Shown here one piece after another: positions 4,037 through 12,411 of a stretch of DNA of 27,299 nt. Where the stretch lies: NCBI GenBank assembly GCA_964645535.1, contig CAZYCQ010000022.1, forward strand, positions 1-27,299. Direction: 5' to 3'. This DNA comes from an uncultured archaeon. GTDB lineage: Archaea; Asgardarchaeota; Heimdallarchaeia; Heimdallarchaeales; Kariarchaeaceae. Below the pieces are notes generated by a model, which was not told where the DNA came from, did not search any database, and was given only the letters and a program-made list of their open reading frames with translations. A program made the position numbers and the translations under genes. Within the stretch, counting starts at the first letter, position 1; every line of letters starts with the position of its first letter.

Positions 4037-5221
4037 TTGGTAGCCCCTGACCTTCTTTCGCTTTGGATTTCCGGCACCTTGCTTGCAGCGACTGTAGGGG
4101 TATCCATCTATGTTTTCCGAAAGGTGCAGGGTTCGTCAATTCTGCAAACTGTTGGAGGCTACATGCTGGCTTCTGCTTGGATGTTCCTGTCACTGCTGAA
4201 TGATCATGTTTCCATTTGGCTGATCAATTCTGACCCTCAGGGCACTGCATTTTTGACCATTCTCTTAATTCTTGCAGCTCTCATGGTCACCAATTCGCTC
4301 CATCGCGGGTTTCGGTTTGCCTCACACTTACGGCATTTTATTCTTTTCATGGGGTGGTTTCTGATTGGAATATTTTTTGTCCAGGTTGTGGTACCTGAAA
4401 GCATCATTATCCTAAGTCAGCAGGGTGAATCTTCTCCCAGTATCCATCCGATTGTTCTCATTCTCCTTATAGGATGGGCTTTCATCATCCTAGTATATCT
4501 TTTTACCTTTGACCTGAGAACAGTTAAGGGATTGGATAGGTATTTCCCTACTTACGTATTACAGGTTCCTCGTTTTATCGGTTTCGGAGGCATGGTTCTT
4601 TTTGTGATTCAACCGCTCGTGATACGGTTGGATCCGGACTTAGGTCGGAATTACCTTCTTTTGGTTGCGGATCGCTTATTGGTTCAGTTTGCCATCCTCT
4701 TTTTCATGGTGATTCTGCTGGATGATCCGACAGTTGCTCTTGAGATCGGTCGAAGGTTAAGGAAGTTATACGATGCGGGGGAGATTGGACTGGCTTTTTT
4801 CGGATTTGACGAAACCGGTCCCACATTATGGTTTTCCAAAGGAGATTTTGCTGCTGATCCTGATGGTATCTCCCGTCTTTTGTCCATTGGGCTGTCCGCA
4901 ATGGTTGCTTTGGGGCAGGATGATGAATATGTTGTTGGCTCGGTTCTGATCCCCATTGCCGGCAATCGGCATACTGCTTTGGGTCTCGGCAATTGGATGA
5001 AAGATGCCAGTCAGGCTGATCCAAGGATGAAGGGACGTACATTTGTGGTTGGTGTCGTCATTCTCCCCAATACCATTGCCTGGATATTTGACCATCGAGA
5101 ACATTTGGAAGCTTCCTTTACTCGTTTTCTGCAACACTATGAAGACCGTTCACAACTGTCTCCCGAAGCTTTTTATGAGTTTATGCGATCTGAATTGTTG
5201 GAGATTGGCATCTCTTCATGA
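4037..5221 (+). CDS. Seven-TM membrane protein with C-terminal cytoplasmic longin/uDENN-like domain
   Basis: Seven hydrophobic segments in the first ~230 aa, then GLAFFGFDETGP..ALGQ..DPRMKGRTFVVGVVI. TTG start is uncertain. Confidence 0.65.
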   Translation: MVAPDLLSLWISGTLLAATVGVSIYVFRKVQGSSILQTVGGYMLASAWMFLSLLNDHVSIWLINSDPQGTAFLTILLILAALMVTNSLHRGFRFASHLRHFILFMGWFLIGIFFVQVVVPESIIILSQQGESSPSIHPIVLILLIGWAFIILVYLFTFDLRTVKGLDRYFPTYVLQVPRFIGFGGMVLFVIQPLVIRLDPDLGRNYLLLVADRLLVQFAILFFMVILLDDPTVALEIGRRLRKLYDAGEIGLAFFGFDETGPTLWFSKGDFAADPDGISRLLSIGLSAMVALGQDDEYVVGSVLIPIAGNRHTALGLGNWMKDASQADPRMKGRTFVVGVVILPNTIAWIFDHREHLEASFTRFLQHYEDRSQLSPEAFYEFMRSELLEIGISS

Positions 5222-5257: not shown

Positions 5258-5836
5258 ATGGGTTTCTCTCCTCTTGGCAGTGCCTTCATTTTGAGCCTTG
5301 GTTTCCTTGGGGTTTCCATTTACCAGTTTCTTGAGGGGAACCTCACGGCTGGTAGATTTTGGCTTATGGTGACTACACTTGCCTTTTTCTTCACGTTTTT
5401 TTTCTTCCGTGCCTTGTACTATCTTCGTTATCGTGCCACCTTCAATGATGTCGGTTTTGTCTTCTTTCTTCCGCATGTTCCCCTTTTCTTTGCCTTTCTT
5501 TCGCGGCTTTTCCGGATCGAGGTGGATGATCTTGTGATTCTAGAACTCTTGAAACCTTGGGAGCTCCGGCTTTTTGCCAATTTTGTTGATCTTGTCAGTC
5601 TCCCCTTTTATCTTTTCAGCCTTTTTCTGCTCTTGAGAACTCATCTTCGCTATCCGTTCATCCGTCTGACGGGTCATGCAACTGATGGGCTTCCTTCGCG
5701 ATTGGTTGCCCTTTACATGACTGTCGAGGTTCCCTTTGTCTATTGGATTGTTGCTCTTCTTTTTGTCCCGAATCTTTCCCTTCTTCTTTTCGGGCTTTCT
5801 TTTCTTGTCATTGGATTCATAGGTTTCTTTGTTTGA
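5258..5836 (+). CDS. Multi-pass membrane protein, apparent paralog of the membrane domain of the RING protein at 6928-8016
   Basis: About six hydrophobic segments; colinear motif similarity to the E3 N-terminus (see findings). Confidence 0.75.
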   Translation: MGFSPLGSAFILSLGFLGVSIYQFLEGNLTAGRFWLMVTTLAFFFTFFFFRALYYLRYRATFNDVGFVFFLPHVPLFFAFLSRLFRIEVDDLVILELLKPWELRLFANFVDLVSLPFYLFSLFLLLRTHLRYPFIRLTGHATDGLPSRLVALYMTVEVPFVYWIVALLFVPNLSLLLFGLSFLVIGFIGFFV

Positions 5837-5841
5837 TTTTG

Positions 5842-6492
5842 CTACCTTGGTAGCTTTTCCTTCGGAATTTTTGTTTTTGGATCCTTGGGTCGTTTTTCGG
5901 AAGGGATTTTTGCACTTGATGGAAGATTTTTGGTACTTGGAGGTCTTTCATCTTTTACCACCCTGCTGATTTCTTTTGAGTGAATTCTGTTGGTTTTCAA
6001 GGTCTTGATAGGTTTGGGTTTTTCCTTTTTCTTTGGTTTCTTGGCAGGTACTGTCTTGACCTTGGTTTTTCCAATTGTCTTTGTCCGTGTGGGGACGGGG
6101 TTCTCTTTTTTTTGATTTTTTTCAATGCTTTTGACTGCAATGTTCTTCAGGGCTTTTTCTTTGACCTTTTTCGGTTTCTTGTCAATGTTTTTTTGTTTGA
6201 TGGATTTGGAACTGGTGGGGCGTTTTTCCTTTATTTTCATCTTGCTTGGGGAAGGGGGCTGTTTTTCCCTGATTGGGTTATTTGGTTTCCTTTCCACTGA
6301 GGTCTTGGGAATTGTCTTAAGCAATTTCTCGATCTTTACCTTTTTTTTCGGAGGAACGCTGGCTAGTCTCTGCCTAACTGTTTTTTTTGGAGGTTGATCT
6401 TTCTTTACTTCCGTTTTTGGAATGGTGTCCTTTGGAATCTTCTCTTTTGGTGTTTTCTGTTTGATTCGGTCTTTTTTGAAGGGAAGTTTCAT
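5842..6492 (-). CDS. Lys/Pro-rich, highly basic, predicted disordered protein (histone H1 tail-like composition)
   Basis: About 63 Lys in 216 aa by hand count; no Cys, Trp or Tyr. ATGA overlap with the upstream stop and a GGAGG ribosome-binding site support a real gene. Confidence 0.7.
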   Translation of the reverse strand: MKLPFKKDRIKQKTPKEKIPKDTIPKTEVKKDQPPKKTVRQRLASVPPKKKVKIEKLLKTIPKTSVERKPNNPIREKQPPSPSKMKIKEKRPTSSKSIKQKNIDKKPKKVKEKALKNIAVKSIEKNQKKENPVPTRTKTIGKTKVKTVPAKKPKKKEKPKPIKTLKTNRIHSKEISRVVKDERPPSTKNLPSSAKIPSEKRPKDPKTKIPKEKLPR

Positions 6493-6914
6493 TTCTTTCC
6501 TCCTTTCCTTAATTTTCGGTATTGTGAGATGAGATCCAACAGGATATCGGATATGGAAATGGAATTGGGTCCTCTGGAAGCGATTCCCTTTTCAAGCATG
6601 TATTTGGTCTTGATCTCATTCAATTTTCGGTGCACATCTGCTGAGACCACAATGGTCTTATCTGACCTAGGGCTTCTGGCATCACCTGCATCCTCTGGAA
6701 GTTTTTCCTTGATTGTTTCCTGCAAGTTGACTGATTTTCTCTCAAAGGCATCAAATACCCTTTTCAGAACATCTGTATAGGTAGGCACCCCTTCCTCGAA
6801 CTTGAGGTGGCGAATGGCCTGCCACGCCTCGAAAGAGAGCCTCAGGTTTTTGCCTCGGCTACTCACGGATTTTTCTGTGTTTGTGTGGTTATTAGGGTTT
6901 GTCTTCAAAGTCAT
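6489..6914 (-). CDS. Tandem RHH DNA-binding protein (archaeal VapB/CopG-like units)
   Basis: Two RHH-like units: KNLRLSFEAWQAIRHLK..TYTDVLKRVF and KTIVVSADVHRKLNEIK..SISDILLDLI. ATG 6914, preceded by GGTGG, is preferred over 6971. Confidence 0.7.
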   Translation of the reverse strand: MTLKTNPNNHTNTEKSVSSRGKNLRLSFEAWQAIRHLKFEEGVPTYTDVLKRVFDAFERKSVNLQETIKEKLPEDAGDARSPRSDKTIVVSADVHRKLNEIKTKYMLEKGIASRGPNSISISDILLDLISQYRKLRKGGKK

Positions 6915-6927
6915 TAACCCACCCAAC

Positions 6928-8016
6928 TTACTTGAGCTTTTTGAGCACTTGGCGGGAATACTGCGAGGCATCCAACTTCAATTTTGTGGATAACCGGCTG
7001 ACCGGTTTGGAGCAACGGGGGCACAGGTTGGATTCCCTTCTCCACTCCTTCAGTTCCTGTTCATGGGCAGGGAACTTACAATGTGGACAGAGTACGATTT
7101 TGCCATCGGAGGGGCGAATCGGTTCATAGCAGATGGTGCAGGCCAAATCTTCTTTTCTCACATGGCCTGTCGGCATGAGATTCGTGCCTGTCTTCTTTCC
7201 ATTTCCATTCGTTCGACGTTGGGGGCGGACTTGAATTTCTCTTCCTGGTTCAATTGTCGCAATGTCTGTTCTTCTGGGTCTAGAGGGTATTCCATTGCTT
7301 CTTCGTGATCTTCTTGGGGATCTACGGAGATAGTCATTAAGGAATGCATTGGAATGGGCTGCACGGAATGTCTCCTCTTGCCGTCGGCGTGATTGTCTGC
7401 GAAGGATGTGTCTTCCAAGTACATAGTATTTGACCGTAGAATAAAGCCAGAAGGCAACCGCCATCAGTGCCAATGGATCAATGATGTGTGTTTTCCATCC
7501 TATGTAAAGGAAGGACATGGCCATTGCGGAATGAACCAGAAATGGCACCAGCCGTGTCCTGAACAGTTTCCGATGCACTGCGAATCCCAGCCATTCTTTT
7601 CTATGGATTTTCCAGAAGATGTAGGACTGAAACAGCAAATGAGGTAGTCCCAACAAAATTGTATGGAAGAAAATCAGCCTGTAGCCGTTTATCAGAATTA
7701 CACTTCTCTCCACAAGGATAGGTTCCATTGTTTCCCCAACAAGGAAACCCAAAAGAATCACCACATATGGCAACCCGACGAACTGGGAGCTTGCAAGGAT
7801 TGAATCATACCTTTGGAAATATCTCCGTTCCCAGAGAATCCTTGAAGAGACCATAGTCCATACGGTAAGGTAGGCAATTAGGATTGTTCTTGACATGTTC
7901 CCTGCCAGCAGGTAGAGGAATGCAATGACCGAACCGATCAGCCAGATGGCCACATACATCTCTATTGTATTGAATAGCCGTTCGATTCTATCAAGCAACC
8001 CCTCAAACATTGTCAT
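6928..8016 (-). CDS. Membrane-embedded RING-type E3 ligase (multi-TM N-terminus, Arg-rich linker, C-terminal RING)
   Basis: About six TM segments; C-terminal CTIC..CPHCKFPAHEQELKEW..LCPRC at ~7013-7140; located in the E1/E2/JAMM operon; ATGA overlap with the JAMM stop. Confidence 0.85.
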   Translation of the reverse strand: MTMFEGLLDRIERLFNTIEMYVAIWLIGSVIAFLYLLAGNMSRTILIAYLTVWTMVSSRILWERRYFQRYDSILASSQFVGLPYVVILLGFLVGETMEPILVERSVILINGYRLIFFHTILLGLPHLLFQSYIFWKIHRKEWLGFAVHRKLFRTRLVPFLVHSAMAMSFLYIGWKTHIIDPLALMAVAFWLYSTVKYYVLGRHILRRQSRRRQEETFRAAHSNAFLNDYLRRSPRRSRRSNGIPSRPRRTDIATIEPGREIQVRPQRRTNGNGKKTGTNLMPTGHVRKEDLACTICYEPIRPSDGKIVLCPHCKFPAHEQELKEWRRESNLCPRCSKPVSRLSTKLKLDASQYSRQVLKKLK

Positions 8017-8699
8017 TCCTCCATCTGATTCATTAACAGCGATATGGCCGCAAAAGCTGCTTCAGGAGTCATGCCTTCTACCTCGGATTCGAGTCGATAA
8101 TACTCATGCCGTCCTGACAGCCTGAACACTTCAAATCCATAGGATTCCTTGGTGATCATTGTGGGGTCGATGACAATCGCGATCGAGCTTTCCCAAAGGG
8201 CTTGGTATCGTGCTTGGGTTCTGACATCATCGATGCTCAGATAGGGGGAATAGGATGGATGGGAATGAGCCCAGCCTACGATAAATTCGTTTTCTTGCTT
8301 TTTGCGGAGAATATCCATTACAGGTTCTGCCTCCAGAATATTCACGCTTACTGCATTGCCATGTCCTACTGGCCAATATTGACTAACAATGATCCGTTCA
8401 ATGGGAGTGTTCTCATCAACAAGGGTGCCTGTCAGCAATCCTATGACTTCCACCCATTGGGAGGGATGCCGTTTGGGATTGGCAAACTTGATGGCATGAG
8501 CGGCCATATTCAGATAGGCTTCGGACTTCATGACAACTTGGGACTGACGGGGGATGGACAAATCATCCCTTTCATTGATGTCCGCCTTATCAGTGTTGTG
8601 CTCTCCGGTGGCCGTCGGTTCGAGTGCCATGAGGCTTTCGATGCGTTCGATCCTATCCAGGATTTCCCGATATTCCGGAGGCATTTTTTCCGAGTTCAT
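8013..8699 (-). CDS. JAMM/MPN+ metallo-isopeptidase (Rpn11/CSN5-like deubiquitinase or Ubl maturase)
   Basis: EVIGLL..VGWAHSHPSYSPYLSIDD (E..HxH-x7-S-x2-D intact), then TQARYQ and IAIVIDP. Confidence 0.93.
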   Translation of the reverse strand: MNSEKMPPEYREILDRIERIESLMALEPTATGEHNTDKADINERDDLSIPRQSQVVMKSEAYLNMAAHAIKFANPKRHPSQWVEVIGLLTGTLVDENTPIERIIVSQYWPVGHGNAVSVNILEAEPVMDILRKKQENEFIVGWAHSHPSYSPYLSIDDVRTQARYQALWESSIAIVIDPTMITKESYGFEVFRLSGRHEYYRLESEVEGMTPEAAFAAISLLMNQMEE

Positions 8700-8702
8700 A
8701 AG

Positions 8703-9224
8703 TCACCAATATTCCTTTGCGTATTTTTTGTTGATTGCCTTGGCCTTCTTCATGAACTTCTTCCGATCATTGAGATATTGCAAGGCAGCTTCCTTATTGA
8801 AGACATCCTTGGGGTTGATGAAAGCCCCATCGATATTGAACATTGCCAAAATTGAATGGATGACCGTTCCGATGTTTTTCGAAGGGCTCCAGCCGTTGGG
8901 CTTGCCTACCAGTTCCTGATCAACCAAGGCCAGACAAATGTTTCTTTTTCCTTGGTATTCCTTGGGGTTGGGCCAAAAGTTGGGATGCCAGATGGGGGTG
9001 TGCAACCTGACAAATGGTGGCTTATATGGGTAATTCGGTCCATATTTGATTTCAAGTTTGTACTTGCCGCCTTCATAGGGTGTCCCTTTTGGTCCCTTGA
9101 ACCCAATGGCCAAATGTTCTATCGATTTCTTTGTTGGAGAGAACGATTTGACCTGATCGATCACTCCTTTTTTGTACAGGTGCTTCAGAATTTCATAATC
9201 TTTGATGATTCTTTTCTTTCTCAT
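8703..9224 (-). CDS. Ubiquitin-conjugating enzyme E2 (UBC fold)
   Basis: GPKGTPYEGG, YPYKPPFVR, WHPN, catalytic ICL, WSP, NKEAA. Confidence 0.95.
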   Translation of the reverse strand: MRKKRIIKDYEILKHLYKKGVIDQVKSFSPTKKSIEHLAIGFKGPKGTPYEGGKYKLEIKYGPNYPYKPPFVRLHTPIWHPNFWPNPKEYQGKRNICLALVDQELVGKPNGWSPSKNIGTVIHSILAMFNIDGAFINPKDVFNKEAALQYLNDRKKFMKKAKAINKKYAKEYW

Positions 9225-10507
9225 GGTTTTCGTCCCTCATTGTACTTGATTTTGACATAGATGTCGATATCCTCCTCATTTCGGATGAAGCCAAGGGCGT
9301 AAAGGGTTTCCCCTTGTCTGATGTTTTCCTCATGAAGTGTCCGGTCAAGGGCAAGGGGTTCCATGTCTTCGCCATCCATCCTGTAATAACTTGGATCCAG
9401 GTCTGGATTCCTTAGGTACCCCTCTTTCCGAAGCAGAAGCTCGAGATTTTCTATGACGAGGGATCTTGGAACCTTTATTGAGAGGATTTTGGGTGCCTGC
9501 GGTCCGCAGAGCTGACAATCTGGGTTGGGTGGTTTCTTCAGGTAGAAGAACTTTCCTGTCACGCCATTGTATATGGTATATTCTAAATTGACTTGACCAA
9601 TGTTTCTCCCATGCAATTGATGGAGTGCCTTTATCGCTTCCTGTGATTGGATGGACGCAATGACCGCATTTATGGTTATCACTGTTGGCTCATGGAAATC
9701 TATCATGGAAACTGCCTCATCCAATGTGAACTCCTTCTCGTGGGGGAAGTGTTCTCTCACCAGTCGGTTCGCATAGTTGAGCACCTTTTCCATCTCTTCT
9801 CTGTTTGAGGTGTCCGGTTCTCTTCCAGTCTGGGATTCAAAGAAGAGTTGTCCTTTCAAAAGGCAATGGGATCGTTTTCTGGGAACTCCTACAAGAGTGC
9901 ATGCCGCAAGCGTTTCCCTTTCCCGTTCCTTCAGTGGATCACATTGCAGGCAGGCATTGGCTTTGGGCATGTAGGTGTAGATATGTCCATAGTATGTCAT
10001 GGTGCCTCCATCAATCAGCGGCTTGCCATTGTGCACTGCTTGCCGTGCAAGGTCCCTTCTGGCCTCTACATTGTCCAATCCTGATATGTAGAGATCCACT
10101 TCTTCGAAGATCATTGGATCAAGGGATTGAAGTTTCCCGTGGTGAGGGATGTAACTTCCATAGGGATTCACTTCCTTCAATTTCCTCGCTGCCGCGACCG
10201 CTTTGGATTCCCCTTCCTCTGCACCGATAAAAAGAATCTGGCGGTTGAGGTTACTGTATTCAATCACATCCATGTCCACAAGATGGAGGGTTCCCACTCC
10301 TGCCATGGCAAGATTCTTGGCAATTTCTGTACCAAGCCCTCCAATTCCTGCGATGAGTACTGATGATCGCTTTAGGGTTTCTTGATCCCATCCAGGAAGG
10401 CGAAACTGACGATCCAAACGTTTGCGTTCGTCAGGTGTGAGACTGTCGGAAAAGAAATTTGATCTGTTTTTGTCCATATTATTCACGTCCAGGGTGTCGG
10501 TCTTCAC
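9221..10507 (-). CDS. Ubiquitin-like activating enzyme E1 (ThiF/MoeB fold, Uba3-like catalytic Cys domain, probable C-terminal ubiquitin-fold domain)
   Basis: RLDRQ, GIGGLG, DMDVIEYSNLNRQILF, LDN, DGGT, Zn pairs CLQC and CQLC, and CTLVGVPRKRSHC resembling Uba3 CTIAxxPRxPEHC. The GTG start overlaps the upstream TGA. Confidence 0.93.
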   Translation of the reverse strand: MKTDTLDVNNMDKNRSNFFSDSLTPDERKRLDRQFRLPGWDQETLKRSSVLIAGIGGLGTEIAKNLAMAGVGTLHLVDMDVIEYSNLNRQILFIGAEEGESKAVAAARKLKEVNPYGSYIPHHGKLQSLDPMIFEEVDLYISGLDNVEARRDLARQAVHNGKPLIDGGTMTYYGHIYTYMPKANACLQCDPLKERERETLAACTLVGVPRKRSHCLLKGQLFFESQTGREPDTSNREEMEKVLNYANRLVREHFPHEKEFTLDEAVSMIDFHEPTVITINAVIASIQSQEAIKALHQLHGRNIGQVNLEYTIYNGVTGKFFYLKKPPNPDCQLCGPQAPKILSIKVPRSLVIENLELLLRKEGYLRNPDLDPSYYRMDGEDMEPLALDRTLHEENIRQGETLYALGFIRNEEDIDIYVKIKYNEGRKP

Positions 10508-10824
10508 CAGACCCCTGCCGTGGAGAAAGGTATGATGAGCATGGTGTCGCCATCCTCAACATCATAATTGTCGACGATGTCATCATCATCACAGGTTCTT
10601 CCTCCAATCACGATATGGAATGACTGGGTGTCTGGGAGTCCGAACAGGGTGGCAAGGGTCTGCTTGATGTCACGGATGGAGGCATCGCGGGCAATCTCCA
10701 GCGTCTCCTGCCGATGGCTTGGGCCGACTGTACTTTCGACTTGGATCCGTACCTTCCCTGAAGGGGGTAACTCTTCATCCAAGCCATCAATGTCCAGTTC
10801 TTCAAATTCTCTGTCTTCGCTCAT
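10504..10824 (-). CDS. Ubiquitin-like protein 2 (acidic N-terminal extension, ends STAG-VW)
   Basis: Beta-grasp pattern SIRDIKQTLATLFGLP..FHIVIGGRTCDDDDIVDNYDVEDGDTMLII. ATG 10824 chosen by similarity to the Ubl1 N-terminus; the alternative is 10875. Confidence 0.88.
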   Translation of the reverse strand: MSEDREFEELDIDGLDEELPPSGKVRIQVESTVGPSHRQETLEIARDASIRDIKQTLATLFGLPDTQSFHIVIGGRTCDDDDIVDNYDVEDGDTMLIIPFSTAGVW

Positions 10825-10871
10825 AACTAACCTTGCCCAATACAAGGTAATGAACGTTTCCCACAGAGGAT

Positions 10872-11216
10872 TCATTTGCCTGCCGTTGAGACAGGTATCA
10901 GGAGAAGGGAGTCTCCATCCTCAACCCCGTAATTGTCGAGGGAATCATCCGGATCACAAGTGCGACCTGCATGGGAGATATGGAATTCATCTGGAGGCAA
11001 TCCAAAAATCTGTCCCACCGTATACTTGAGATCCCTGATGGGGGCGTCTTTGGCCACAACCAGCTTCTCCTGCTTCTGGTTTGGACCAACCGTGCTCTGG
11101 AAATACACCGTCACCTTTTTTCCCGCAGGGGTCTTGGAGGTGGCGGGTGTCTTCGACTTTATTTCATTGACCAAAAGGTCATCATCTTCAAATGACAAGT
11201 CTTCAAACTCGCTCAT
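10872..11216 (-). CDS. Ubiquitin-like protein 1 (acidic N-terminal extension, ends STAG-K)
   Basis: PIRDLKYTVGQIFGLPPDEFHISHAGRTCDPDDSLDNYGVEDGDSLLLI matches the ubiquitin/SUMO 'TLxDYxIxDGxTIHL' pattern. ATG 11216 is preceded by AGGTGAT. Confidence 0.9.
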   Translation of the reverse strand: MSEFEDLSFEDDDLLVNEIKSKTPATSKTPAGKKVTVYFQSTVGPNQKQEKLVVAKDAPIRDLKYTVGQIFGLPPDEFHISHAGRTCDPDDSLDNYGVEDGDSLLLIPVSTAGK

Positions 11217-11289
11217 AGTAATCACCTGGGTTGTGGACCATGCAAACACATGATCACAACAACACACAAACATATATTACATTCCAAAC

Positions 11290-11297
11290 TATATAAA
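11290..11297 (-). promoter_or_regulatory. Archaeal TATA box of the ubiquitin operon
   Basis: TTTATATA preceded by purine-rich GATAGG on the minus strand; the same GGTTTATATA core occurs upstream of clpB. Confidence 0.65.
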
Positions 11298-11505
11298 CCT
11301 ATCCATCATGCGACTGAATTCTGGGTAATTGTCAGTTGTCTGATTGGAGAGGGCTAGGAAAAGGGTTCAACTTGACTGATGGCTCGGATCAACATTGGCT
11401 ATGAGCCTCAACACCGAATATATCCAATATGTTTGAGAAATGCTTTTCTTGCTTCTTTTTTTTAAAATCTGAAAAGATAAAATAGTGTCTGAATGTAATA
11501 GAAAT

Positions 11506-12411
11506 TCAAGCATGTCGCGGAAGGACAAATCTTTGCATTGCAGCCGTGAACCTGTTTCTATTTCTAAAATTTTTCAAAAGGTGTTCTCCTTGACGTCCGC
11601 AGAGAATGGTCAATTGCTGAGCCCCCTTTTGCTCAAGGAATTCCTGTATTCTCCCTAACATGGCATCAGTTGCTTCTGTGTCGGGTACTGTCCGGGAGTA
11701 CACCGGTCCCATTCTCCACTTCCCTCTTGATTTTGTAAGTCGTGCCCATGCCCGTACTCCTCTTTCCAGAAAACAGAAATCCTTGATTTCCTCAACAAAT
11801 GTAGGGAGATTGGAAATCACATTTTTGGCAAATTCCGGAGAATAGCCTAGATTCTTTGCAAGCAGATCCGCTTTTTCTTTGGCGGAAATTCTTGTGCAAT
11901 CTTCTATATTGACATTATGCTCAAACGAGAATGCAGGGAGATCAATGATTGCACGATGCACCAAGGCTCCTTCCTGCTGAAATCCCTTTTCTTGCAGATA
12001 GTCATTGAACCCCCATGAGGGACTGACATTGCAGACAATGGCCTTGACCCCTTTGGTTTCGAGGATTCGGATACTTTCATTGATGAGGGCTTTTTCGATT
12101 TGCTCTGATCTAGGTCTTACTATTGGTGGTGACATTATACCCAAAGGTAGTGGAAGATCATTTGCATATAGTTCTGTCCCTGAAATGCTTGTCACGATCT
12201 TGGAAGTGATGAACCCTTTGATTTCTCCATCTACCCAATAAAGGCGGGTTGATGGATCACATTCATCACTGCGGTACAATCGTCTCAAGTATTCTTCTTC
12301 CGACTGATTAAAGAATTCCCATTCATTTTCCGCAATTTTACCGAGTCTGACTTGCTGTTCGATAAACCAGTTCAGTTTCTGTGGATCAAGGCTAACTATA
12401 TGTCCGCCCAT
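11506..12411 (-). CDS. GNAT-fold acetyltransferase-like protein, probably two GNAT domains
   Basis: DGEIKGFI..IEKALINESIRILETKGVKAI..YLQEKGF, and a second DAMLGRIQEFLEQKGAQQL unit. Confidence 0.6.
   Translation of the reverse strand: MGGHIVSLDPQKLNWFIEQQVRLGKIAENEWEFFNQSEEEYLRRLYRSDECDPSTRLYWVDGEIKGFITSKIVTSISGTELYANDLPLPLGIMSPPIVRPRSEQIEKALINESIRILETKGVKAIVCNVSPSWGFNDYLQEKGFQQEGALVHRAIIDLPAFSFEHNVNIEDCTRISAKEKADLLAKNLGYSPEFAKNVISNLPTFVEEIKDFCFLERGVRAWARLTKSRGKWRMGPVYSRTVPDTEATDAMLGRIQEFLEQKGAQQLTILCGRQGEHLLKNFRNRNRFTAAMQRFVLPRHA

Follow-up and report, generated by a model that had tools for sequence, protein, structure and literature searches.

A membrane-RING ubiquitin-like conjugation locus in a Kariarchaeaceae archaeon: gene content, conservation and a proposed mode of action

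A tight cluster of genes in an uncultured Kariarchaeaceae archaeon encodes two ubiquitin-like tags, enzymes of a conjugation cascade and a predicted membrane RING protein, raising the question of what such a system modifies and where in the cell it acts. We analyzed this cluster within a window of 27,299 nucleotides (contig CAZYCQ010000022.1), the whole stretch of DNA considered here.

Gene content and layout

A sequence-only reading had listed eight consecutive minus-strand genes encoding Ubl1, Ubl2, E1, E2, JAMM, a membrane RING protein, a tandem ribbon-helix-helix (RHH) protein and a Lys-rich protein, and the open reading frame (ORF) list bears this out (Table 1). Read from the sequence, the gene junctions are as tight as described: Ubl2 and E1 overlap by GTGA, the E1/E2, JAMM/RING and RHH/Lys-rich pairs each overlap by ATGA, and 3 nt separate E2 from JAMM. 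The TATA box reported upstream of Ubl1 was also confirmed. Based on orthologue alignments and the sequence, we moved three start codons: Ubl1 to 11216, Ubl2 to 10824, leaving a gap of 47 nt to Ubl1, and RHH to 6914, where a 13-nt gap holds a GGTGG Shine-Dalgarno-like site. The leader contains TGTTTG twice, spaced 24 nt apart, and possibly a leaderless Cys-rich upstream ORF (MFVCCC...). It is near-invariant in three congeners, with DNA farther upstream not alignable; it occurs once in its own genome and was not found 5' of Ubl in five genomes of family f2 that lack RHH.

Table 1. Features of the locus, in window coordinates; the ORF column gives spans before start codons were moved
Feature	ORF	Span	Strand	Basis or remark
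TATA box TTTATATA		11291..11298	-	Upstream of Ubl1; kept in two congeners
GT-rich leader		11217..11273	-	Spans TATA box to Ubl1 start; conserved
Ubl1, 114 aa	10872-11273	10872..11216	-	Pfam ubiquitin E 5e-6
Ubl2, 106 aa	10504-10875	10504..10824	-	Pfam ubiquitin E 6e-5, under cut-off
E1, 428 aa	9221-10507	9221..10507	-	ThiF E 1e-54
E2, 173 aa	8703-9224	8703..9224	-	UQ_con E 2e-25; UBC fold
JAMM metalloprotease, Rpn11-like, 228 aa	8013-8699	8013..8699	-	JAB E 1e-13
Membrane RING E3, 362 aa	6928-8016	6928..8016	-	AF2 model; RING/U-box fold matches
Tandem ribbon-helix-helix protein, 141 aa	6489-6971	6489..6914	-	AF2 and Foldseek
Lys/Pro-rich low-complexity protein, 216 aa	5842-6492	5842..6492	-	Composition and motifs
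TM192, membrane protein, 192 aa		5258..5836	+	Convergent with Lys-rich gene

The proposal that the locus encodes a full cascade of Ubl, E1, E2 and JAMM together with a multi-pass membrane RING protein is supported, with catalytic motifs intact. Judged by its motifs, E1 is of the eukaryotic type: GxGxxG (54-59) marks a predicted ATP site, two CxxC pairs (186 and 331) would supply the zinc cysteines, and Cys203 is the loop cysteine, set in C-T-L-V-G...H-C. The C-terminal part of E1 is beta-grasp-like, with a weak YukD match at residues 354-403, and the top PDB matches of the enzyme are UBA1, SAE2 and UBA3 (~1e-30). E2 has an HPN motif (80-82) and catalytic Cys97, matches Ubc1, Cdc34 and UbcH7 in the PDB (~1e-16) and is 72-86% identical across the order. 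The JAMM protein keeps its metal site (Glu84, H145-x-H-x7-S-x2-D158) behind a helical N-terminal extension and matches Rpn11/PSMD14 (1e-14) and the Caldiarchaeum Rpn11-like protein (6fju).

Both tags, predicted beta-grasp proteins, close with Ala-Gly and then one or two further residues. Ubl1 comprises an acidic N-tail, an I-K-S-K-T-P / S-K-T-P linker, the beta-grasp domain and a ...STAG end followed by K; it matches ubiquitin and Caldiarchaeum Ub (6fj7) in the PDB and is 74-89% identical to its orthologues across the order. The ...STAG end is kept in most Heimdall- and Loki-group Ubl1 orthologues examined. Its paralogue Ubl2 has two Lys, no KTP motif and ...STAG followed by VW.

The RING protein has about six transmembrane helices (residues 18-219), followed by a basic, disordered Arg/Ser-rich linker of roughly 70 residues (about 209-276). 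A RING-like domain with the pattern C-x2-C-x13-C-x2-C-x4-H-x13-C-x2-C (293-335) lies in the C-terminal part. The membrane assignment of the protein is based on six long hydrophobic AF2 helices, hydropathy and a positive-inside charge pattern; the topology is taken from hydropathy together with the AF2 model, which is of medium confidence (pLDDT 71.5). The zf-RING_2 match of the window protein (E 1e-4) lies under the Pfam gathering score, and 11/14 orthologues match this family. Of the Cys/His ligands, no more than seven are invariant, and Glu321 may serve as the eighth.

A ninth component, TM192, had been overlooked. Profile comparison identifies it as a putative RING-less paralogue of the E3 membrane domain: hhalign aligned it to the E3 family over 165 columns (probability 94.7%, E 6e-8), and the E3 membrane-domain profile retrieved the TM192 family library-wide (E 6e-8 to 6e-5). 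A syntenic TM192 gene occurs in 23 Heimdall-group loci, but no Loki-group locus examined has one.

Conservation among Asgard archaea

In our gene-neighborhood survey, Ubl-E1-E2-JAMM-membrane RING was colinear across Heimdall- and Loki-group Asgard archaea. The RING gene directly followed E2-JAMM in 16/16 loci taken from the order, and of 60 further Asgard loci, most kept the full Ubl-E1-E2-JAMM-RING series where contigs were not cut short. RING ORFs in those 60 loci were 357-417 aa long, and eleven examined had 4-6 hydrophobic segments. The eight genes together are not a conserved unit, as RHH is limited by family and the strand or contig of the Lys-rich gene varies. No copy of the system turned up in two closed genomes of the order, nor in a congeneric genome that is 93% complete; the system is therefore dispensable.

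The enzyme core belongs to a type of archaeal operon described before. In Candidatus Caldiarchaeum subterraneum, one operon encodes Rpn11, Ub, an E2-like, an E1-like and a small RING finger protein (PMC5654768, PMC6043591). Both systems join the same five activities in one operon with eukaryote-like enzymes, and both encode a tag precursor with extra C-terminal residues, which the Rpn11-like JAMM removes in Caldiarchaeum and would remove here; the structural matches 6fju and 6fj7 come from Caldiarchaeum. The window tag differs in ending in Ala-Gly rather than Gly-Gly and in its long acidic, K-T-P-bearing N-tail; its E3 has six predicted membrane helices, whereas the RING of Caldiarchaeum is small and soluble; and the window adds a second tag, the RING-less E3 paralogue, the Lys-rich partner and RHH. 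The contrast that had been drawn with typical archaeal operons stands against Caldiarchaeum but not within Asgard archaea, where this operon normally carries a membrane RING and loci with two Ubls are common. Among genomes of the order, only genus g1 was seen to have a second Ubl; since many Loki loci also have two, a second Ubl is not peculiar to the window's genus.

Asgard archaea also have an ESCRT-linked Gly-Gly ubiquitin with E1, E2 and a small, soluble RING E3, for which UEV-Vps23 is a reported substrate (PMC9192718; bioRxiv 10.1101/2023.07.25.550441). That system shares phylum and kind of cascade with ours but is a separate gene set: the window operon is not beside ESCRT genes, and its E3 is predicted to lie in the membrane. 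Elsewhere in the window's own genome we found a compact E1 gene adjacent to one for a GG-type Ub, as well as separate E2 and UEV genes, which marks the eight-gene locus as a second, distinct system. In the literature searched, no paper describes the membrane E3, its RING-less twin or the motif-sharing Lys-rich partner.

The Lys-rich partner and a shared motif

The Lys-rich protein (29% Lys, 14% Pro) carries I-K-Q-K-T-P and K-I-P-K repeats at both ends. Its gene is a neighbor of the operon in about 19 Heimdall-group loci and is also present in Loki-group loci wherever the fetched flank reaches far enough; it lies on the opposite strand in family f2 and the Loki group. That the neighborhood is kept through inversions and changes of strand points to a functional connection. 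Among 11,894 ORFs of its own genome, 11 have two K[TI]P within 15 residues and three have I-x-x-K-T-P; Ubl1 and the Lys-rich protein belong to both sets. Ubl tails of both the Heimdall and the Loki group retain the motif. Sharing this rare motif with the Ubl1 tail makes the Lys-rich protein a candidate built-in substrate, and the earlier suggestion of a co-encoded substrate is reasonable in its case, based on conserved synteny and a motif noticed post hoc. We propose it as a candidate dedicated partner or substrate.

SUMO offers a possible working analogy. Ubc9 reads a short Lys-containing consensus (psi-K-x-E), and SUMO2/3 chains form via such a site in the flexible N-tail. Here, too, a short Lys motif lies in the disordered N-tail of a tag and in a candidate substrate, with one paralogue lacking it (Ubl2 here, SUMO1 there). 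The motif itself differs (I-x-x-K-T-P), its recognition by the window E2 is an analogy only, and by Pfam and PDB matches the window tag is no closer to SUMO than to ubiquitin.

The motifs might instead serve for docking, the Lys-rich or coiled-coil protein being a scaffold that recruits Ubl or enzymes to the E3 while the real substrates lie elsewhere. The Loki orthologue, a long acidic/basic coiled coil, carries the motif at both ends of a dimer-forming coil, and the Ubl tail, bearing the identical motif, might occupy the same pocket; the invariant Lys inside the motif, however, fits an acceptor role, and we consider docking unlikely, if worth weighing.

Membrane domain, DNA-binding protein and proposed mode of action

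The sequence-only reading had also offered a proto-ERAD role. On such a view, membrane proteins that are misfolded or in excess would be marked by the RING ligase for extraction and breakdown by the proteasome, with the Lys-rich protein as an adaptor only. Hrd1, Doa10/MARCH6 and the MARCH family are eukaryotic polytopic RING ligases (review PMC4021871), and the window E3 resembles them in architecture, with a multi-pass membrane domain and a cytosolic RING that would recruit a UBC-type E2. The JAMM protein is closest to proteasomal Rpn11, and Cdc48 and the 20S proteasome are present in archaea (PMC13328587), which also counts for this reading. Against it, the membrane domain forms a small family (98 cluster representatives among 1.84 billion in a profile search) with no larger superfamily in the same library, and its fold matches are nothing more than generic helix bundles (Z up to 8.6), with no Hrd1, Doa10 or MARCH structure among them. 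The neighbors examined in the window and related loci include no Cdc48, derlin/rhomboid or proteasome gene, and the conserved neighbor is a soluble motif-bearing protein rather than a chaperone or lectin. Lacking a sequence or fold link to Hrd1 or Doa10, and with no ERAD partners nearby, a proto-ERAD role is without homology support and, in our view, distinctly improbable.

A second suggestion was membrane-to-DNA signaling; RHH and the Lys-rich protein would then be DNA-binding substrates whose tagging at the membrane alters expression or chromatin. Support for the tandem RHH call comes from the AF2 model, in which a beta-alpha-alpha unit appears twice, as in single-chain tandem RHH proteins, where two such units form a pseudo-dimer (TraY of F plasmid, VirC2, engineered single-chain Arc). 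The top Foldseek matches (TraY, single-chain Arc, DndE and VirC2) are weak, however (best E 0.04); Pfam assigns no family to RHH or the Lys-rich protein, and VAPB_antitox matches weakly in 6/9 RHH family members. The Lys-rich protein is very basic with T/S-P-K-like units, and its gene is translationally coupled to RHH (ATGA) and linked to it in six genomes. RHH follows the Lys-rich gene, not the operon: in one genome (G002), the two lie together on a different contig from the operon. Yet RHH, present in 8/11 Kariarchaeaceae genomes, was found in 0/29 genomes searched from families f2-f4, many of which keep the remaining system, and it has no K-T-P motif. The DNA-binding fold at the locus varies by lineage (RHH here, a double wHTH replacing it in Loki, TPR-wHTH in G002), a pattern of local transcription regulators, and the Loki coiled coil makes an H1-like DNA binder unlikely. 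Signaling to DNA is a weak reading and very unlikely; RHH is probably a lineage-specific local DNA-binding transcription regulator.

Least credible is an antiviral module of the bacterial Bil or CBASS-Cap2/Cap3 kind, which would attach Ubl to proteins of an invader or to effectors. In its favor, the system is patchily distributed and dispensable in this order, and its E1 matches PADLOC 'E1-E2' models (up to E 2e-18). That match comes only from a generic adenylation domain, however, and E2, JAMM, RING and Ubls are without a PADLOC match; the closest matches of the enzymes are eukaryotic (UBA1/SAE2, UBC and Rpn11), gene order and similar neighbors are kept from Heimdall to Loki, and the locus has no effector gene.

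We favor, at a probability of roughly 0.6, the reading that the locus is the Kariarchaeaceae version of an Asgard-wide Ubl conjugation system acting at the cytoplasmic face of the membrane. JAMM would cut the extra C-terminal residues off the tags and later strip tags from conjugates; the tag would pass as a thioester on E1 and then E2, and the membrane RING protein would place E2~Ubl at the membrane. TM192 is probably a partner or regulatory subunit, and RHH probably regulates transcription of the locus in this lineage. Preferred acceptors would be the Lys of I-x-x-K-T-P motifs, confined to the Ubl1 N-tail and both ends of the neighboring Lys-rich protein. Ubl2, motif-free with its two Lys, could not be extended. 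With the motifs so placed, Ubl1 might build chains, the Lys-rich protein being a possible built-in substrate or scaffold.

Operon layout and distribution among Asgard archaea

In this window, which derives from a Heimdall-group Asgard MAG, the sequence-only reading had placed a complete eight-gene ubiquitin-like (Ubl) operon at 5842-11297, and its genes, tight junctions and TATA box were all borne out by the order of the ORFs, their Pfam families, the revised starts and junctions, and the TATA box itself. The minus-strand ORFs follow one another as Ubl1, Ubl2, E1, E2, JAMM, membrane RING E3, RHH and Lys-rich protein. Pfam assigned the ubiquitin family to ORFs 1 and 2 (E 5e-6 and 6e-5), ThiF to ORF 3 (E 1e-54), UQ_con to ORF 4 (2e-25), JAB to ORF 5 (1e-13) and, below its cut-off, zf-RING_2 to the C-terminus of ORF 6 (E 1e-4). 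The RHH and Lys-rich ORFs matched no family in Pfam or NCBIfam, and in NCBIfam the E1 drew only generic ThiF/MoeB families and the JAMM protein a weak desampylase match. The starts of Ubl1, Ubl2 and RHH were set using orthologue alignments together with the DNA; after this revision neighbouring genes either overlap by GTGA or ATGA or are separated by gaps of 3, 13 and 47 nt, with a ribosome-binding-like GGTGG inside the 13-nt gap ahead of the RHH gene.

Positions of the operon features and of related genes at other loci (L) and contigs (C; G000 is the window's own genome)
Feature	Position	Strand	Remarks
Flanking gene	4037-5221	+	394-aa multi-pass membrane protein; no Pfam family
TM192 gene	5258-5836	+	192-aa membrane protein; convergent, facing the Lys-rich gene
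Eight successive ORFs	5842-11273	-	ORF listing
RHH start	6914	-	revised
JAMM gene	8013-8699	-	residues 1-50: N-terminal extension
Ubl2 start	10824	-	revised
Ubl1 start	11216	-	revised
Leader	11217-11273	-	57 nt, TATA box to Ubl1 start
TATA box TTTATATA	11298-11291	-	read from sequence
Flanking gene	11506-12411	-	301 aa; no Pfam family
Second ubiquitin (G000:C20)	L109:4972-5220	+	82 aa
Compact E1	L109:5201-6208	+	335 aa; overlaps second-ubiquitin gene
UBC E2	G000:C28:14651-15022		better-scoring
TPR plus winged-helix protein	L014:5641-7680	+	679 aa; congener G002
2-TM ubiquitin-like protein	L066:2069-2857	-	Loki group, in cluster
Double wHTH regulator	L066:2937-3614	-	Loki group, in cluster
Genes downstream of membrane RING gene	L100:7307-8074; L100:8369-9262	+	255 and 297 aa; one Promethearchaeia locus
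Two genes between TM192 and Lys-rich gene	L027:7944-9492; L026:3912-5437		genera g2 and g6

Part of this arrangement reaches far beyond the window. Genes for E2, JAMM and membrane RING protein were adjacent in 16/16 loci taken from the order, and in another 60 loci retrieved with the E3 alignment (Promethearchaeota/Loki plus Hod-, Hermod-, Thor-, Odin- and Borr-archaea) Ubl, E1, E2, JAMM and RING genes were colinear wherever contigs were not cut short. The RING ORFs of these further loci measure 357-417 aa, with 4-6 hydrophobic segments in the eleven examined. Given this colinearity and these RING proteins, the five-gene core is Asgard-wide and a membrane E3 is its normal form. A gene-neighbourhood survey, which the sequence-only reading had proposed as a check, thus upheld the core across Asgard archaea but not the RHH gene, which was limited to the family Kariarchaeaceae (f1). 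Many Loki-group loci hold two or three Ubl genes; within the order, a second Ubl was observed only in the window's genus (g1). In G003, G012, G015 and G020 (two closed genomes of the order, one genome of 95% completeness and one same-genus genome of 93%), queries with the E3 and the operon E2 did not find the system, neither an E2 orthologue nor the E3 membrane domain being detected. The system is dispensable and patchy, not universal.

The membrane RING protein and its RING-less relative

An AF2 model of the E3, built on 14 orthologues (pLDDT 71.5), consists of six long helices (residues 18-219), a disordered Arg/Ser-rich stretch (209-276, with 21 Arg/Lys) and a compact C-terminal domain. This last domain resembles RING and U-box structures (3lrq, probability 1.0), superposing on RNF165 with a TM score of 0.77 (rmsd 1.6 over 49 columns) and matching Ring1b at Z 7.2. 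Among the orthologues, 11/14 matched zf-RING_2 and six matched Prok-RING_1; only seven Cys/His of the RING-like domain are invariant, and an invariant Glu stands where an eighth ligand would be expected. A strict hydropathy threshold returned only three segments in the window's E3, the count of six helices resting on the AF2 model and looser hydropathy. Charges follow a positive-inside pattern (loops 62-78 and 131-154 and the linker basic, loop 98-105 acidic), which would leave the N- and C-termini and the RING domain on the cytoplasmic side.

The sequence-only reading had offered a proto-ERAD-like quality control system as one possibility. In architecture the window's E3 resembles the ERAD ligases Hrd1 and Doa10/MARCH, joining a polytopic membrane domain to a cytosolic RING. 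Homology to them is not supported: in fold searches with the whole model the membrane part drew generic helical bundles only (Z up to 8.6), and a profile of the membrane domain retrieved only 98 cluster representatives out of 1.84 billion proteins. A word-based search with the E3 found 4 proteins only. No Hrd1, Doa10 or MARCH chain was among the Foldseek or VIA matches of the E3, and no gene for Cdc48, a derlin-type partner or the proteasome was seen among the neighbours examined in the window and at related loci. The proto-ERAD reading is among the least supported parts of the sequence-only interpretation.

The gene set of the sequence-only reading lacked TM192, which is a ninth, overlooked component. 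Its gene is a direct neighbour of the E3's in 23 loci of the Heimdall group and in 0 of the Loki group. In a profile-profile comparison TM192 matched the E3 family with a probability of 94.7% (E 6e-8) over 165 columns, the whole membrane domain, and a profile built from the membrane domain of the E3 retrieved TM192 relatives library-wide (E 6e-8 to 6e-5). These two results make TM192 a paralogue of the E3's membrane domain that lacks a RING. The kinship is visible with profiles only; a BLASTP comparison of TM192 with the E3 fell short of significance (E 0.11). A complex prediction of TM192 with E3 residues 1-212 scored 0.13, which is below the mark and neutral on binding. Protein-atlas look-ups returned low-scoring unnamed clusters only, both for TM192 and for the RHH protein. 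In genera g2 and g6, TM192 and the Lys-rich gene are separated by two more conserved genes, coding for proteins of ~112 aa and of ~396 aa, the latter with a hydrophobic C-terminal end.

Tags, enzymes and comparison with known systems

Structural matches of Ubl1 were ubiquitin and the Caldiarchaeum ubiquitin. Ubl1 ends in ...STAG followed by K and Ubl2 in ...STAG followed by VW; the ...STAG end is conserved, and together with the Pfam ubiquitin matches it fits a beta-grasp tag whose C-terminal Gly is open to activation. Instead of Gly-Gly, almost every orthologue aligned carries Ala-Gly, which is retained even in one second-copy Loki Ubl where Ile replaces Thr. Many orthologue genes terminate directly after the Gly, so C-terminal trimming would be needed in some species only; the main task of the JAMM protein is probably removal of the tag rather than trimming. 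Loki-group loci have in their cluster, as at L066, a 2-TM protein whose ubiquitin-like C-terminus lacks a terminal Gly (Pfam ubiquitin E 1e-4). The two proteins encoded downstream of the membrane RING gene at locus L100 have an N-terminal CxxC and, at the C-terminus, ...SSTAG followed by an extension, and look like fused, larger tag precursors.

The operon enzymes look active and eukaryote-like, judging by their residues and relatives. The E1 combines an adenylation domain (GxGxxG) with zinc cysteines (two CxxC pairs) and a putative catalytic loop (Cys203 within C-T-L-V-G...H-C), its best PDB relatives being UBA1, SAE2 and UBA3 (~1e-30). The UBC-fold E2 has HPN at 80-82 and a catalytic Cys (Cys97), with Ubc1, Cdc34 and UbcH7 as best relatives, and the JAMM protein has Glu84 and H-x-H-x7-S-x2-D (H145 to D158) and is closest to Rpn11/PSMD14 (1e-14) and a Caldiarchaeum Rpn11-like protein. 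Before the MPN domain of the JAMM protein runs a conserved N-terminal helical extension (P-x-E-Y...I-E-x-L-E) common to the Heimdall and Loki groups.

As a complete set, the genes did not match the antiviral Ubl systems of bacteria (Bil, CBASS Cap2/Cap3): the PADLOC 'E1-E2' models were matched by the E1 adenylation domain only, and the other eight proteins had no match. On another contig, the window's own genome also encodes a ubiquitin that ends in Gly-Gly plus YGNF and, overlapping it, a compact E1; elsewhere it contains a better-scoring UBC E2 and, on contig C52, a UEV-like gene. The window operon is thus a second, distinct tagging system. The ESCRT-linked ubiquitin (PMC9192718; bioRxiv 10.1101/2023.07.25.550441) is not the system of the window operon. 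Published reconstitutions of the Caldiarchaeum operon used a small soluble RING, and the same papers state that Asgard archaea have similar operons (PMC5654768, PMC6043591). The operon core is a known kind of system, and the variant formed by the membrane E3 and its partners is, as far as we can tell, undescribed. Full-text literature searches found no membrane domain on an Asgard operon RING protein, key subscription papers being outside reach, and the searchable papers contained no TM192-like paralogue, Ala-Gly end or motif-bearing partner, so that an earlier description may exist. The window adds the Kariarchaeaceae variant, which has the RHH protein, a partner of low complexity, TM192 and a second tag without the motif.

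The RHH protein, the Lys-rich partner and a shared motif

The RHH protein repeats a beta-alpha-alpha unit twice in one chain (AF2 secondary structure E22-26/H28-41/H46-59 and E86-90/H92-109/H121-138), which is the fold of the RHH superfamily (MetJ/Arc/CopG). Its top fold matches, with weak E-values, were the single-chain tandem RHH proteins TraY, single-chain Arc and VirC2. The gene occurs in 8/11 f1 genomes and 0/29 genomes of f2-f4, accompanying the Lys-rich gene in six genomes and coming after the E1 gene in one. In the congener G002, the RHH/Lys-rich/TM192 unit and the operon are on separate contigs, and the membrane RING gene is followed by that of a TPR plus winged-helix (MalT-like) protein; Loki loci have a double wHTH (ArsR/HrcA-like) regulator inside the cluster, as at L066. 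Since one DNA-binding fold replaces another at a conserved locus, we read the RHH protein as a probable local transcription regulator rather than a substrate, which leaves the suggested membrane-to-DNA signalling circuit among the least supported readings too. The leader, nearly invariant in three congeners, contains TGTTTG twice, 24 nt apart, and the DNA farther upstream is not alignable. A search upstream of Ubl in five RHH-less f2 genomes did not find this element. It may be an RHH operator, or alternatively an RNA or peptide leader. The same stretch could encode a leaderless Cys-rich uORF (MFVCCC...), in frame with Ubl1 in the window's genome only.

The Lys-rich protein belongs to no family, yet is a constant neighbour. 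In family f2 its gene and TM192 are arranged tail to tail, with E2-JAMM-RING on the other strand from the Lys-rich gene, and in Loki its position is upstream and its transcription divergent. Long antisense ORFs exist, and we considered whether this ORF might be a low-complexity artefact; this was rejected because the gene is coupled to the RHH gene through ATGA and its terminal motifs are kept across genera. The middle is not conserved: in the Heimdall group it is low-complexity sequence rich in Lys, Pro and Ser, in Loki a coiled coil of 280-470 aa. The conserved parts are short motifs at the two termini, namely I-x-x-K-T-P and K-[IT]-P-K repeats. From Heimdall to Loki, I-x-x-K-T-P also appears in the Ubls, in the linker between an acidic N-tail and the beta-grasp domain; Ubl2 of genus g1 is without it.

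In an own-genome scan, a pattern of at least three K[TI]P per 30 residues had no match, so the requirement was relaxed to two within 15 residues. That pattern occurred in 11/11,894 ORFs and I-x-x-K-T-P in 3/11,894, Ubl1 and the Lys-rich protein being included each time, and these counts are descriptive only, as the motif was spotted after the sequences were seen. Conservation of the motif across classes is a stronger argument than its rarity in one genome.

One specific mechanism would connect these parts, and we give it roughly one chance in five. The RING protein, perhaps as a pair with TM192, would hold the E2 at the membrane, and the E2 would join the Ala-Gly tag to the Lys of I-x-x-K-T-P. 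Because the motif lies in the tail of the tag and at both ends of the Lys-rich or coiled-coil partner, the products would be tag chains and a covalently cross-linked protein layer under the membrane. In the Heimdall group, the RING-less paralogue and the motif-less tag suggest regulation by subunit choice and chain capping.

Membrane-based tagging with ubiquitin-type modifiers, as in ERAD, endocytic sorting and organelle quality control, is seen as a eukaryotic elaboration, and to our knowledge the archaeal systems reconstituted so far have small soluble RING proteins. Here, a conserved operon in archaeal relatives of eukaryotes has a membrane-embedded protein as its sole E3 and, adjacent to it, a candidate substrate with an acceptor-like motif. 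This small, defined set of proteins opens membrane-directed tagging before eukaryotes to reconstitution and testing. If the motif-directed machine is real, it would represent a structural use of ubiquitin-like tagging that predates eukaryotes.
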